NCBI GenBank assembly: GCA_963674755.2
Contig: CAXXVS010000001.1
Span: 512,001 to 576,000, forward strand
Reading direction: 5' to 3'
Origin: Desulfobacterales bacterium
Lineage (GTDB): Bacteria > Desulfobacterota > Desulfobacteria > Desulfobacterales > UBA5852
Length of the DNA stretch: 64,000 nucleotides
Both the position numbers and the translations under genes were made by a program. Positions within the stretch are counted from its first letter, which is position 1. The number at the start of each line of letters is the position of its first letter. The notes under the pieces were generated by a model that did not search any database, was not told the DNA's origin, and was given only the letters and a program-made list of their open reading frames with translations. This document shows positions 52,811 through 57,916 of the stretch, piece by piece.

Positions 52811-52903
52811 CCCCAATTTATGATACATATCTCATTATGTGTCAGCCCCGAGCGGATGATAGGGACCCGCATTGCCATCCCCGGGGGCGAAAGGCGGATC
52901 GCT

Positions 52904-53830
52904 ATGCGTGATTTACTTTCGACGAAAGAAGTGGCCCGGTTTCTGGGTGTCAATGAAAAGATGGTCTATACCCTGGTGGCTGAAAAAGGACTGCCGGCCA
53001 CCAAAATCACCGGCAAATGGCTTTTCCCCCAGAATTTGGTGGAGCAGTGGGTCGAAGCCAACACCATCAACTATCCGGAACCCCAGCGCCATTTGCCGCC
53101 TTATGAGGGGTTGCTGATTGTAGCCGGCAGCAACGATCCCCTTCTGGAGAAGACCCTTTCGCTGTTTAACCGGCGTTATCCCGAGCATATCGCCGTACTG
53201 GGCAATCTGGGGAGTCTCGGCGGATTGCGGGCCCTGCGTCGCAATTTGTGCCACCTGGCCACCAGTCATCTTATCCAGGACAATGAGGCGGACTATAATT
53301 TCGAATATGCCGACCGCGAACTCGAACGTCAGCCGGCGGTGGTCAATTTCTGCCGACGGGAGCAGGGGTTGCTCGTGGCCCGGGGGAATCCCAAAAGCAT
53401 AAGCACGGTGGCCGATTTGGCCCAACCGGGGCTTACCCTGGTCAACCGCCCCAATAGTACCGGAACCCGCCTGCTCCTGGACCGTGAATTGGCCAAGGCC
53501 GGCATCGAGGGTGAGGACATTGCCGGCTATCACCAGACGGTGATGCGCCATCTGGACGTGGGCCTGGAAATCCTGGCCGGGCGGGGCGATGTGGGGCCGG
53601 GCATCCGCGCTGTGGCCGGGATGCTGGGGCTTGATTTCGTGCCCCTGCGCTGGGAGCGCTATGATTTGCTGATCACCAAGGAGCGTTTTTTCGACCCGGG
53701 TGTTCAGCTTTTTCTGGGGTTGCTGCCGGATGAAGAATTCCGGCAGTTGGCGGACACGCTGGAGGGCTACGACGTCTCTGCCAGCGGAAAAATGGTCTAC
53801 CCCAACGGGGAACGGCCACAAACGGATTAG
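52904..53830 (+). CDS. Excisionase-type HTH + molybdate/tungstate-binding PBP transcriptional regulator (TaoR-like)
   Basis: [11 protein letters not shown]...[17 protein letters not shown]_17; [26 protein letters not shown] and ERYDL PBP motifs; heads the wtp operon. Confidence 0.85.
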
Positions 53831-53843
53831 GAAGGAGACATCC

Positions 53844-54824
53844 ATGGATCGGAAGCGGTGGCATTTTTTAAGCATCATGCTTGTTGGATTGCTGCTGATG
53901 GGTGGGACGGCCGTTACGGCTGCGGCCAAAGACGCGGTTATCGTGTTTCACGCCGGTAGCCTGACGGTGCCCCTGGCTCAGATCGAAAAGGATTTCGAAG
54001 CGTTGCACCCGGATATCGATATCCAGCGCGAGGCCGGCGGCAGTACGAAAATGGCCCGCATGATTTCGGAATTGCACAAACCGGCCGATATTATGGCATC
54101 AGCCGACTACCAAGTTATCGAGAAAACCCTGAGGCCCCGGTATGCCGACTGGAATATCCGCTTTGCCACCAACCGCCTGGTGCTCTGCTATACCCCCCAG
54201 AGCCGTTACGCCGATGAACTGACCGCCGATAATTGGTATGAGATTCTGGCCCGCAAGGGCGTAGTCTGGGGGCATTCCGATCCGAACCTGGATCCCTGCG
54301 GGTACCGCAGCCTGATGGTCCTGCAGCTGGCCGAGCTGTTCTACAACCAGCCGGGGCTCTACGACCGTCTGCTGGCCAACCGGCCGGAGGCCAATGTGCG
54401 GCCCAAGTCGGTGGAGCTGGTGTCGCTGCTTAAAACCGGGCATATGGATTATGCTTGGGAATACCGTTCCGTGGCCGTCCAGCATGGGTTGAACTTCCTG
54501 GAACTTGATGACCACATCAATCTTGGCAATTATGCGTATGACGATTATTACCGCCAGGCCCAGGTCAAGGTTACCGGCAAAAAGCCCGGCAGCTGGATAA
54601 CCCGCACCGGCAAAAGCTGCACCTACGGTATCACCATGATCAAGGACGGCCCCAATCCAGACGGGGCGGCCCTTTTCATGGCCTATCTGCTGGATCCGGA
54701 AGGCGGCTTGAAAGTCCTGGACGCCATGGGGCAACCGCCCTTCATTCCCTGCCGGGTGGCTTCGGAAACTGAAAAGCAAGCCTTGCCTGATTCGCTGCAA
54801 CCGCTGGTTGCCATTGCGCCCTAA
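53844..54824 (+). CDS. wtpA: Tungstate/molybdate ABC transporter substrate-binding protein WtpA
   Basis: Signal peptide; [22 protein letters not shown] and [10 protein letters not shown] motifs. Confidence 0.85.
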
Positions 54825-54906
54825 TGAATCCCGCTGATGACGCTCCTGCCGGTGGGCGCCGGATAGCGCATCCCGGCCGGGGCGGGCGGTCGATTTCGCT
54901 ACCACC

Positions 54907-55742
54907 ATGCCACCCATGAATGCGTCCTTGCATAGCAGCCCCCCATCGGCCGGCGGCCGTCTGGCGATCGATCCCTTTTGGGGTCTTGCCCTGGCCGCCA
55001 CCACCGTGATCACTGCGTTCATTCTGCTTCCGCTGGTGGAAATGGTGGTCCAGCCCTCCTGGCAGGACCTGCTCGATTCCTGGCGCGATCCCGATGTCGT
55101 GCGGGCCATCGGAATGAGCCTTTATACCGCCGGCGCGGCGGCCTTGATTTCCTTCGTCTTCGGCACCCCGTTTGCCTACCTTCTGGCCCGCAAATCCTTC
55201 CCGGCAAGCGCCTGGTGGAAAGCGTGGTGGACCTGCCCATTATGATCCCCCATCCGGTGGTGGGCATTGCCTTGCTGAGTCTGGCCGGTCGCCATCACTG
55301 GTTCGGACGCATCCTGGAAGCGCTCAACATCCAGATCATGGGCACCGTCACCGGGATCGTCAGCGTTCTGACCTTCGTCGGACTGCCCTTTTACATCAAT
55401 GCCGTCAAAACCGGATTCGAGTCGATTCCGCCGCGTCTGGAGACGGTTTCCCGCAGCCTGGGGGCCTCGTTTTCAGCAACCTTTATGCGGGTCACCTTTC
55501 CCCTGGCCTGGCGCAGCATGCTGGTGGGGCTGATCATGTGCATGGCGCGTGCGGTGAGTGAATTCGGGGCCGTCGTGATCGTGGCCTATCATCCCATGGT
55601 GGCTTCGGTGATGATCTATGAGCGGTTTACCGCATACGGACTGAAGTATTCCCAGCCGGTGGCGGTGGGATTGATTCTGGTCTGCCTGGTGTTTTTCCTG
55701 CTTCTGCGCTGGGTGTCGCCCCGGAAGGCGTCCATCCCATGA
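54907..55742 (+). pseudogene. wtpB: Tungstate/molybdate ABC permease WtpB, split by a 1-nt frameshift near 55200 (real lesion or sequencing error)
   Basis: N-half (FGTPFAYLLARKSF) in the 54907 frame; C-half (PGKRLVESVVDLPIMIPHPVVGI...SRSLGAS...ARAVSEFGAV) in the 54978 frame; one extra C in TTCCCGGC joins them. Confidence 0.8.
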
Positions 55743-56800
55743 TACGGGTGGAGGACTTGACCGTCGCGCTGCCCGGCTTTGCCCTGACGGACATCCAGTT
55801 GCATGTGGCACCCGGCGAGGCCTTTGCCCTGCTCGGGCCCACGGGCGCCGGCAAGACCCTTTTGCTGGAAGCCATTATGGGGGTCGTACCGGTGCAACGG
55901 GGCCGGATCCTGGTCGCGGGCCGTGACGTGACCGGGTTGCCCCCCGAGCGGCGCCGCATCGGGATCGTCTACCAGGATCACGCCCTGTTTCCCCATCTGA
56001 ACGTGGCGGAAAACATCGTCTATGGGCAACGCTATTGTGCCGGCCCGCTTCCGGACCTGGACGCCCTGATCCAGCGTCTCGGCCTGGAGCGCCTTCTGGC
56101 ACGCCGCATCCATTCCCTGAGCGGCGGCGAAAAACAGCGCGTGGCCCTGGCGCGTTCCCTGGCCGTGGCGCCTTCGGTCCTGCTATTGGACGAGCCGCTG
56201 ACCGCGCTGGATCCGAATTTCCGCGAAGATCTTCGCGATCTGATCAAAACCCTGCATCAGGACACCGGCATTACGCTGCTGATGGTGACCCACGATTTCG
56301 CGGAGGCCCATTTCCTGGCCCAGCGCACGGCGATCATGCATAGCGGACGTATCGAACAAACCGGATCCCTGGAGGCGGTTTTTGCACATCCGGAAACCCC
56401 CTTCGTGGCGGGTTTCGTCGGCATGAAAAATCTGTTTTCGGCGGAAATTGACGGGGATGCGGTGAAAATCGGCAACCTTCGGCTGCGGTGCCGCAACCCG
56501 GGCGGCGGGTTTCGTTCGATTGCCGTACGGCCGGAAAATGTGGGTGTCAGCCGGCAACCCAAGGACGCCCCCGGGGTCAACCATTTGACCGGCCGCCTGC
56601 GCCGCGTTTTGAACCGCGGCTTTTATGCGGATATCCTGGTTGACGTGGACGGCGTGTCCTGGCATGCCATCGACAGCCGCCGTGACCTGGGCCGCTCGGC
56701 CGTGACCCACGGCGAGACGGTTTATCTAACGATCGCCCCCGAAGATATCCATTTGATTCGCGATGGTTGCGATGGGGGGACGCAAAAAGCGGGAAGATAG
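55739..56800 (+). CDS. wtpC: Tungstate/molybdate ABC transporter ATP-binding protein with TOBE domain
   Basis: GPTGAGKT, LSGGEKQRVALAR, LLLDEP and VTHD motifs; ATGA overlap with the permease stop. Confidence 0.88.
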   Translation: MIRVEDLTVALPGFALTDIQLHVAPGEAFALLGPTGAGKTLLLEAIMGVVPVQRGRILVAGRDVTGLPPERRRIGIVYQDHALFPHLNVAENIVYGQRYCAGPLPDLDALIQRLGLERLLARRIHSLSGGEKQRVALARSLAVAPSVLLLDEPLTALDPNFREDLRDLIKTLHQDTGITLLMVTHDFAEAHFLAQRTAIMHSGRIEQTGSLEAVFAHPETPFVAGFVGMKNLFSAEIDGDAVKIGNLRLRCRNPGGGFRSIAVRPENVGVSRQPKDAPGVNHLTGRLRRVLNRGFYADILVDVDGVSWHAIDSRRDLGRSAVTHGETVYLTIAPEDIHLIRDGCDGGTQKAGR

Positions 56801-56874: not shown

Positions 56875-57219
56875 CTAATTTCCGGTGGGATTCGTCGGAG
56901 TATTATCCAACTTGAGCTGGTCAGCCGGAATATTTTTGTGCTGATTGGCGATTTTGTGCTGGTTAGCCGGGATATTTTTGTGTTGGTTGGCCACCTTGTG
57001 CTGGTTGGCGTCAAGGATTTTATGCTGGTTGGATACGACATCGCCTGTTGTCGCCGGGCTGGTGATGGTGGCTTTTTCGCCGGCCATAACATCGCCCACA
57101 TTGACTCCGAGGGAAGCGCCCAGGGAAGCCACGACCGTTGCGATACCAATGGTCTTTTTTAGGGAACGGATGCCCGGTTTGCGATCGTTGTGTTGCTTAG
57201 CGGTCGATTTGGCCTTCAT
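56875..57219 (-). CDS. 114-aa peptide with a leader-like N-terminus and tandem (A/S)NQHK repeats; candidate modified-peptide precursor
   Basis: GGAGG SD; basic N-terminus, hydrophobic TIGIATVVASLGASLGV, then SNQHK-ANQHK x4-ADQLK; overlaps the upstream YkgJ gene by 23 nt. Confidence 0.75.
   Translation of the reverse strand: MKAKSTAKQHNDRKPGIRSLKKTIGIATVVASLGASLGVNVGDVMAGEKATITSPATTGDVVSNQHKILDANQHKVANQHKNIPANQHKIANQHKNIPADQLKLDNTPTNPTGN
56911..57033 (-). repeat. Coding tandem repeats (NQHK x5 plus DQLK; a 42-nt higher-order unit twice)
   Basis: GCCAACCAGCACAAGGTG GCCAACCAACACAAAAATATCCCG / GCTAACCAGCACAAAATC GCCAATCAGCACAAAAATATTCCG; differences are mostly synonymous. Confidence 0.9.
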
Positions 57220-57916
57220 TTTTCCCTCCCTTCATGGAATGGCCGGCCCAGTCTTCGATGGCCCGGATGTGGATTACAAGTTCATTTTCTATCGTTAGGG
57301 GCCGGGCGATTTGTTCTCTTTTGCAAAAGTCTGATACCGCCCGGTCGACATCCCGGAGGATATCGTAAGGTTCCGCCGCCGCACAAGAAGGCTTGGCCAA
57401 GGCATTGGCCATCGCCTGGTGGTTGGCCACATCTTTTTGCAATATATCGCATAACTTCCAAAAAAGCTGCAAGTATTTATCGGCCGCCGCCATAAACGGA
57501 TGGGCCCTCTGGGCGTCGAGATAATCGCAGACCGTGGCGTCCGTTCCATAAACGCCCCGGCAGGCCGGGTCCGGTTCGAATTCGGAAAAGGACTCCTGCA
57601 AGGTCGGTGTAACGTGTCGCCCAAGGGGGTAGAGACGGCAGACCAGGGGGCGGTCCTTATGGACCATGCACCCCCGGGAACCGAGAAATAAGCAGCGTCC
57701 CTCGGCGTCCCAGGTCAGGCAGGTTCCGGCTTCGGTCGTATAGCGCTTGATAAAATCAGACGTAGACAGCCCGCGGTTGCGGGCCAGACGGGTGATTTCA
57801 TAGGGATTGACCTGGATCTTTTTGTTGCGGCAGCAGGTCCGGCAGCGCCGGCATGCGAAGGAGAAAGGCGTTTCCCGATCGAGATTGACCCTGCGTTGGC
57901 GCATATCCATGCTCAT
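57197..57916 (-). CDS. YkgJ/FliB-family CxxCxxCC cysteine-cluster (putative Fe-S) protein
   Basis: FACRRCRTCC...CLFL...CMVHKDRPLVCRLYPLG...C motif set. Confidence 0.88.
   Translation of the reverse strand: MSMDMRQRRVNLDRETPFSFACRRCRTCCRNKKIQVNPYEITRLARNRGLSTSDFIKRYTTEAGTCLTWDAEGRCLFLGSRGCMVHKDRPLVCRLYPLGRHVTPTLQESFSEFEPDPACRGVYGTDATVCDYLDAQRAHPFMAAADKYLQLFWKLCDILQKDVANHQAMANALAKPSCAAAEPYDILRDVDRAVSDFCKREQIARPLTIENELVIHIRAIEDWAGHSMKGGKNEGQIDR

Follow-up and report, generated by a model that had tools for sequence, protein, structure and literature searches.

A YkgJ-type (PF03692) enzyme and an adjoining leader-plus-repeat protein: an apparently undescribed, widespread bacterial gene pair with a putative role in lysine modification

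Introduction

The closest described relatives of the system reported here are two enzymes that methylate amines. The accessible part of the work on Salmonella FliB (PMC8598068) describes a [4Fe-4S], SAM-dependent lysine methylase that turns SAM into SAH and also into MTA; the enzyme is proposed there to methylate flagellin lysines in the cytosol before export, at sites that share no sequence consensus. DpdM, a YkgJ homolog with two predicted cysteine sites, methylates dPreQ1 in vivo, again according to the accessible part of the source (bioRxiv 10.1101/2023.04.13.536721). The family that includes YkgJ, PF03692 (CxxCxxCC), is otherwise very common, with 12 copies in the genome studied here and members in 10 of 14 control genomes; it has almost no known substrates, and we found no solved structure for it.

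We analysed a 64,000-nucleotide stretch of DNA from a Desulfobacterales bacterium (the window), in which a PF03692 gene overlaps a small ORF that encodes a hydrophobic leader followed by lysine-ending repeats. The pair appears to be real, widespread and so far undescribed: a literature search that reached few subscription journals and no supplements found no description of it.

Results

A PF03692 gene overlaps an ORF for a repeat protein

The first-pass annotation of the window had singled out an enzyme gene overlapping a 114-aa repeat ORF with a GGAGG of its own, and the coordinates, the 23-nt overlap and the six repeat units were all borne out (Table 1). Both ORFs lie on the minus strand, and the GGAGG stands 5 nt ahead of the ATG of the small ORF. 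The enzyme has 239 aa when counted from the first ATG (the database call begins two codons later, giving 237 aa), and its ORF matches PF03692 at 47.4 bits, above the gathering cut-off of 23. The partner ORF itself belongs to no Pfam or NCBIfam family; TRF detects its repeat region with a period of 42 nt (2.4 copies, score 137).

Table 1. Features of the enzyme-partner locus (positions and strand in the window; residues in each protein)
Feature	Positions	Strand	Description and basis
PF03692 (YkgJ/CxxCxxCC) enzyme	57197..57916	-	239 aa; N-terminal cysteine domain and C-terminal helical domain; Pfam, predicted structure
CxxCxxCC motif	57830..57853	-	C22, C25, C28, C29 (C22xxCxxCC29)
Enzyme residues 86-101 (HxDRPLVCRLYPLGRH)	57614..57661	-	Alignment; in the model R100, H101 and V102 touch S63-N64-Q65 of the first repeat
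Enzyme long helix, residues 139-170	57407..57502	-	Modelled grip on the leader helix
GGAGG Shine-Dalgarno of the small ORF	57225..57229	-	Inside the enzyme 3' end
Partner (putative substrate) ORF, 114 aa	56875..57219	-	Basic n-region and conserved hydrophobic leader, then a predicted signal-peptidase site and six (S/A)xQxK repeats
Leader / signal-peptide h-region, partner residues 23-39	57103..57153	-	Family pattern AxxVASLGxSLGV
V44-M45-A46, likely -3/-1 signal peptidase I site	57082..57090	-	Heuristic; 81% of 70 partners have A here
Six (S/A)(N/D)Q(H/L)K units	56911..57033	-	Spacing alternates between 8 and 6 residues (42-nt period); Lys67, 75, 81, 89, 95 and 103 are proposed modification sites

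Nucleotide comparisons indicate that the small ORF is under coding selection. The earlier statement that the repeat copies differ mainly at synonymous positions is only mildly true (27 synonymous against 19 non-synonymous bases in pairwise comparison of the six 5-codon units); a better sign is the pattern against its relative in locus L081, with 17, 14 and 51 differences at the three codon positions over 114 codons. The pair had also been called more AT-rich than its neighbours, and this bias is real (GC 0.52 for the small ORF and 0.57 for the enzyme, against 0.66 for alr, 0.64 for the thiolase gene and 0.61 for the window) but mild, the binding-protein gene of a nearby transporter having a GC of 0.58. 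The alr and thiolase genes named upstream of the pair are confirmed by Pfam, as is an ABC ATPase with a TOBE domain encoded by the convergent gene downstream. No sigma-70 promoter-like site was found, nor a terminator-like site behind the partner on its strand. An assembly artefact is unlikely because one sequencing-run contig, which may be the window's own source, covers the whole stretch without a difference.

Two further observations concern the window itself. At position 57245, near the 3' end of the enzyme gene, one low-depth contig (run X4) is one base short, perhaps by error. The region 52820-56800 (+), convergent on the pair, holds genes for a regulator, a binding protein, a permease and the ATPase, the last being the one that was scanned; by their look we take them to be a tungstate/molybdate-type ABC transporter, and they also lie beside the pair in genome G001.

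The partner is linked to the enzyme across phyla

A search with the enzyme returned 759 relatives, and an alignment of 70 of them was used to fetch loci (scanning genome contigs with the single sequence gave no match, whereas the alignment-based scan did match). The 160 loci studied are the 80 best from each of two sets, 369 genome loci and at least 568 metagenome loci; they span Thermodesulfobacteriota, Chlorobiota, Nitrospirota, Verrucomicrobiota, Pseudomonadota, Methylomirabilota and Aminicenantes. One cultured bacterium among the carriers is Chlorobium ferrooxidans DSM 13031 (L022). The first-pass annotation had proposed a dedicated enzyme-peptide pair, to be given up should close YkgJ homologs lack a linked repeat ORF, and had suggested looking for the hydrophobic segment downstream of those homologs. 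A linked partner was found and the claim survives: a profile of the leader's hydrophobic segment, trained on 93 of the 160 loci and used at a threshold of 8 bits, matches the ORF adjoining the enzyme in 139 of the 160, directly downstream in 134 and upstream in five, and 12 more partners were recognised by eye. At the same threshold the profile has no match elsewhere among the 22,689 frames of these loci, and it finds partners in 46 of the 67 loci outside its training set. Counting independently of the leader, an adjoining ORF with at least three [SA]xQxK units is present in 111 of the 160 loci, and none of the 160 has such an ORF away from the enzyme.

The 21 loci without a profile match comprise the 12 with a related leader seen by eye (six of them being upstream ORFs with twin-arginine, Tat-type signals), three that are cut by contig ends and six in which neither the profile nor inspection by eye finds an adjoining partner (L034, L044, L121, L155, L156 and L159). 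In the genome of L034 a partner lies at the start of another contig. The Pelodictyon luteolum-type loci L044 and L121 have the usual Chlorobi context, with no partner adjoining the enzyme and none in genome G441; a recent loss of the partner is possible there.

Linkage also holds when redundancy is reduced: among 53 clusters of enzymes at 70% identity, 41 are linked by the profile, nine by eye and three are unlinked. Across 41 related genomes the enzyme occurs in three and the partner in the same three, side by side, and in 400 other genomes of the phylum both strong partner matches adjoin the enzyme. Four weak matches in that phylum search are long ORFs that lack the leader and were set aside as noise. 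None of the 11 other PF03692 loci of the source genome has such a repeat ORF. The start-to-stop gaps between the two genes range from -71 to +30 nt, and an SD-like word of at least four bases precedes 115 of 117 partner starts, each start having been picked for its best SD. Enzyme and leader distances correlate (Spearman 0.38, reached in 0 of 500 permutations); we set this correlation aside as evidence of co-evolution because shared ancestry explains it. Altogether we are nearly certain that the enzyme and the repeat ORF form a dedicated, widespread two-gene system and that the pair is functional.

The patchy spread of the pair suggests a cassette that is gained and lost. A plasmid search gave no match, and a search of viral contigs gave only two distant matches. 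Within 3 kb, no third gene recurs across lineages, neighbours being lineage-specific, and neither flagellin nor MNIO genes are among the recurring neighbours. In Nitrospira-type loci (L031, L042, L050, L054, L061, L069, L076, L120, L130 and L139) the pair often lies right after an Hcp-like gene and, in several of them, ahead of a VgrG-like gene.

The repeats share a lysine-ending motif

Motif statistics were drawn from 130 partners, reduced to 109 unique sequences of at least 70 aa and then to 75 without near-copies, upstream and by-eye partners being left out. These 75 hold 458 QxK units, against 99 in shuffles (maximum 119), and 383 [SA]xQxK units, against 17, so that the family motif reads (S/A)-x-Q-x-K, with units spaced mostly 6, 7 or 8 residues apart. 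The middle position of the 458 QxK units is Ile in 19%, Gly in 15%, Leu in 12% and His in 12%; NQHK, which had been taken for the core, is thus a local variant. The lysine is fixed: it follows [SA]NQx in 120 of 124 cases, Arg never does, and QxR stays at chance level (22 against 20.7). Because the lysine is not exchanged even for Arg, it is the likely chemical target, as had been suggested earlier of the repeated Lys, with a chemistry that we infer from relatives. The glutamine is replaced in 38 of 158 [SA]N?xK units, by Glu in 21 and elsewhere also by Ala or Tyr; judged by these exchange patterns, Gln and Ser/Ala look like recognition residues. QxK is absent from four of the 75 partners, some of which keep similar Lys-ending units.

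Histidine is missing from 30 of the 75 mature regions, and Cys makes up 0.0% of their 6,194 residues. Metal chelation is not supported as a general function because His is often absent and Cys essentially so, and nor is the earlier suggestion of a His-based metal-binding product. The repeats are rich in N and Q and alternate polar and hydrophobic positions, and partner forms include long helical proteins, Tat-type proteins with a C-terminal domain and one PEP-CTERM-anchored protein. NCBIfam matches across 68 partners are scattered, with at most seven members per family. An ESM Atlas search with the partner gave a first match of 0.82, a lead at most, and a weak search for partner homologs of 397-2000 aa found none.

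The leader resembles a signal peptide

We read the hydrophobic segment rather as a signal peptide, one that may double as an enzyme-binding leader, given the complex model below. By a heuristic n/h/c pattern, 64 of 74 partners have a basic n-region and 71 of 74 an xxA-type cleavage site, so that the product is probably exported, one of the alternatives put forward in the first-pass annotation. Compared across phyla, the leader appears unusually conserved for a signal peptide: S-L-G-x-S-L-G is kept at 63-100% per position, figures that partly reflect how partners were selected. The annotation's other alternative, release of short processed cores, fares badly: no protease or exporter recurs, neither GG nor dibasic sites are enriched, and some partners carry folded or anchoring domains, which makes short released cores unlikely.

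Some partners have twin-arginine (Tat-type) leaders, and one ends in a PEP-CTERM (E 3e-7). That anchor is found in L041:5708-6349, a partner with QxK repeats and a further domain. In six loci (L062, L071, L145, L073, L148 and L158) the ORF directly upstream of the enzyme encodes a Tat-type protein (105-113 aa) that has a related h-region and a probably folded C-terminal part with Lys-Trp/Lys-Leu strands; the L073 protein has no Pfam match.

The enzyme forms a separate clade of PF03692

Seven cysteines of the enzyme (C22, C25, C28, C29, C75, C83 and C93) are conserved in 99-100 of 100 homologs and, by analogy with DpdM, may form two metal sites. Of 159 enzymes, 106 have a fourth Cys, in the C119 region; in the accessible part of their report, the authors of the DpdM study argue that such a Cys would disturb [4Fe-4S]/SAM binding (bioRxiv 10.1101/2023.04.13.536721). 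Relationship to FliB is detectable but distant. An hhalign comparison with six FliB-type proteins gives 93.3% (E 2.7e-7, 141 columns, enzyme residues 20-163), while the FliB equivalog NF038110 scores the enzyme at 14.3 bits against a cut-off of 85, the protein being some 130 residues shorter than the model, and finds 18 weak matches only among 70 homologs (best E 4.4e-5). The motif is CX2CX2CC and not the CX4CX3CC of FliB, with cysteines that align across a two-residue gap. Profile scores thus identify the enzyme as a member of PF03692 that is not FliB in the NCBIfam sense, and in a quick tree the subfamily separates as a clade from other PF03692 proteins (support 100).

Canonical radical SAM enzymes carry a CxxxCxxC motif on a partial TIM barrel; the Cys motif of this enzyme differs, and Pfam gives no radical SAM match at E 0.1. 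No RRE/PqqD leader-binding domain was seen either: Pfam and fold searches return no PqqD match, and the C-terminal domain is all-helical in the model. Among solved structures, a PDB sequence search with the enzyme reaches E 0.22 at best, Foldseek on PDB and viral models yields nothing at E 0.001, and the best VIA-align hits have Z 4.7 and 4.5; these outcomes show neither a new fold nor a different one.

A complex model places the leader on the enzyme

Enzyme residues 5-232 were modelled with partner residues 17-78 and with three controls, SAM and a cluster being included as unscored ligands. The pair scores 0.85 against 0.00 for the best control. Among 157 solved complexes 116 reach this level, and among 215 mismatched pairs 2 do, in a calibration that is rough for our own alignments with ligands. 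At least 44% of contacts are shared between runs, and the pLDDT of the partner does not fall below 64. In the model, leader residues 20-39 pack on enzyme helix 145-159 and on Q35-V36-N37, with Y148 (conserved in 99 of 100 homologs) touching leader L37, and these contacts with the leader are the strongest. The first repeat pairs with the R100-H101-V102 strand, its Gln65 contacting R100/H101, and comes to lie beside the cysteine motif; C28, C93 and Y96 are in the interface. The model supports binding of the partner via its leader, and we think it very likely that the enzyme acts on the repeats. No similar solved structure was found, so that the model is not readily explained as the reproduction of a known complex.

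A second line of evidence comes from fused proteins. Among 235 near-full-length enzymes examined, ten, picked by eye, carry a leader-like helix at the C-terminus after a variable linker. These tails match the leader profile (95.4%, E 1.7e-8); in the AlphaFold2 model of P0191 (pTM 0.87) the fused helix has a pLDDT of about 93, and in a quick tree the fused-leader enzymes fall in more than one place. Together with the complex model, the fused helices suggest that the enzyme binds the leader.

The ten fused enzymes (P0191, P0149, P0270, P0174, P0142, P0190, P0197, P0207, P0234 and P0253) have no repeats attached. In two other proteins, P0243 and P0251, the enzyme is fused to a long C-terminal part, which in P0243 matches an AMP-binding family; the quick tree places both, with weak support, alongside three fused-leader enzymes. 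Residues 90-152 of P0253, in front of the enzyme, weakly match the NGO1945 C-terminal domain (E 0.0015, below the cut-off), which we assume to be part of MNIO partner proteins. On a viral contig, a more distant YkgJ protein (L197:2995-3780) adjoins a serine-recombinase-like gene, and its cut C-terminus starts a hydrophobic helix, perhaps the same fused element.

Discussion

Building on the observed linkage, motif, lysine invariance and homology, and on leader and core binding as modelled, we infer the following mechanism. A cytoplasmic YkgJ-type metalloenzyme would bind the signal peptide of its partner as a leader helix on the C-terminal helical domain, and each (S/A)-x-Q-x-K unit would then be laid as a strand beside the cysteine cluster, its Gln read through R100/H101. 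There the lysine epsilon-amine would be N-methylated with SAM, in the way that FliB modifies flagellin and DpdM the dPreQ1 amine. The modified protein would presumably leave through Sec (through Tat in some clades), whereupon signal peptidase would remove the leader and leave a poly-methyl-lysine protein that is periplasmic or surface-exposed. To judge from methylated flagellin, this protein would likely serve to tune hydrophobicity, adhesion or protease resistance, and formation of fibres by the modified product is possible.

The group that DpdM methylates on dPreQ1 is a primary amine, and lysine N-methylation is the most economical reaction for the pair because FliB and DpdM both methylate amines and the partner lysine is fixed. 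On balance, motif-directed methylation before export is the best reading of the chemistry, held with limited confidence and by analogy to these two enzymes; the 14 bits against a FliB cut-off of 85, the strict motif as opposed to no consensus in FliB and the C119-region Cys all count against it. Other reactions are left open because FliB forms MTA and Gln is paired with Lys. The same pair and export could thus serve aminocarboxypropyl transfer, a Gln-Lys cross-link (i, i+2 or between chains) or lysine oxidation, which we regard as unlikely but worth weighing: the two residues are kept as a pair with constant spacing, the family may be capable of SAM reactions other than methyl transfer since FliB cleaves SAM to MTA besides SAH in the accessible part of that work (PMC8598068), and the subfamily is a clade of its own with no solved structural relative found. 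Yet both characterised relatives methylate amines, and Glu, Ala or Tyr can replace the Gln with the Lys unchanged, which fits a recognition residue, as does the modelled contact of Gln65 with R100/H101. A bolder proposal, which we hold to be doubtful, is that the export signal is the enzyme's missing helix, completing and activating the YkgJ metalloenzyme in trans (in cis in some) and holding export until every QxK is processed, with a new SAM/metal-cluster lysine chemistry, for example aminocarboxypropyl transfer or a polymer-forming Gln-Lys cross-link in the periplasm or at the surface.

The dominance of leader contacts in the model and the fused-leader enzymes without repeats could also speak for a protein that is not catalytic at all. 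Signal-peptide-binding chaperones of Tat substrates are known, and the YkgJ protein might be such a chaperone, or a metal- or redox-sensing holder of the signal peptide; alternatively the partner might regulate the enzyme, its leader helix completing the fold and its repeats acting as a pseudo-substrate. We find these roles improbable, for they leave unexplained why Arg never takes the place of Lys in 124 units, why the modelled first repeat lies beside the Cys motif and why there are so many repeat copies. A classical multi-core RiPP, in which short NQHK-type peptides are released from a modified precursor, seems less probable still. A conserved maturase-bound leader with repeated cores is what defines such systems and is seen here, with binding by model only; most units are 6-8 residues apart and housekeeping periplasmic proteases could act in trans. 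But genes for a protease, an exporter or an additional tailoring enzyme do not recur in the 3 kb around the enzyme, GG (15 against 19.7) and dibasic sites (18 against 31) are not enriched, and the long helical, Tat-type and PEP-CTERM partner forms fit poorly with short peptides. As for the partner being a His metal-binder for the adjoining oxyanion ABC transporter, or an unmodified amyloid-like protein with the enzyme incidental, this particular partner does have five His, the convergent transporter is next door here and in same-genus G001, and the N/Q-rich repeats alternate polar and hydrophobic positions; the many mature regions without His, the failure of the transporter to recur in distant loci and the near-universal linkage to the enzyme make both ideas very improbable.

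Returning to methylation guided by a leader, some further findings count against it. The signal peptide is dispensable in bufferin and oxazolin, fused-leader enzymes exist without repeats, six loci have no adjoining partner, and four of 75 partners are without QxK.

In a family with so few known substrates, this subfamily brings a putative substrate encoded alongside it, a well-defined target motif and a model of how the two bind, making the chemistry of the family testable by co-expression. If our reading is correct, the pair would represent a new enzyme family in ribosomal peptide and protein maturation and a new route to modified secreted proteins; it would provide a motif-directed lysine methylase that is neither SET nor Rossmann, with possible use in protein labelling, and a signal peptide that doubles as leader, a property tested and not found for bufferin and oxazolin.

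How, then, does the pair compare with known systems? FliB of Salmonella (NF038110; PMC8598068, accessible part) shares a homologous N-terminal cysteine domain and is likewise a cytoplasmic enzyme proposed to modify lysines before export. In contrast, it has a CX4CX3CC motif and about 400 aa, where the present enzyme has CX2CX2CC and 239 aa, and it acts on flagellin without a site consensus, where the pair described here includes a short partner of its own that has a leader and a strict motif. DpdM, in the accessible part of its description (bioRxiv 10.1101/2023.04.13.536721), is similar in being a YkgJ homolog that methylates a primary amine, and its CxxxCxxCC motif is divided between two metal sites; unlike the present enzyme it acts on a DNA base in phages, and the likeness is taken from that description. 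The main text of a review of MNIO clusters (PMC12452194) mentions neither YkgJ nor FliB by a term search of the accessible part. The bufferins and oxazolin (PMC11626156, PMC11252979), as far as the accessible parts of these reports describe them, are the nearest in architecture: small Sec-exported precursors, with repeated motifs in oxazolin, that receive their modification from a dedicated cytoplasmic metalloenzyme and need only signal peptidase for maturation. There, an MNIO with a DUF2063 partner acts on Cys, the products bind copper and the signal peptide is dispensable for modification; here, a PF03692 enzyme is paired with partners whose mature regions lack Cys and whose signal peptide shows unusual conservation and, in the model, is the part that the enzyme grips.
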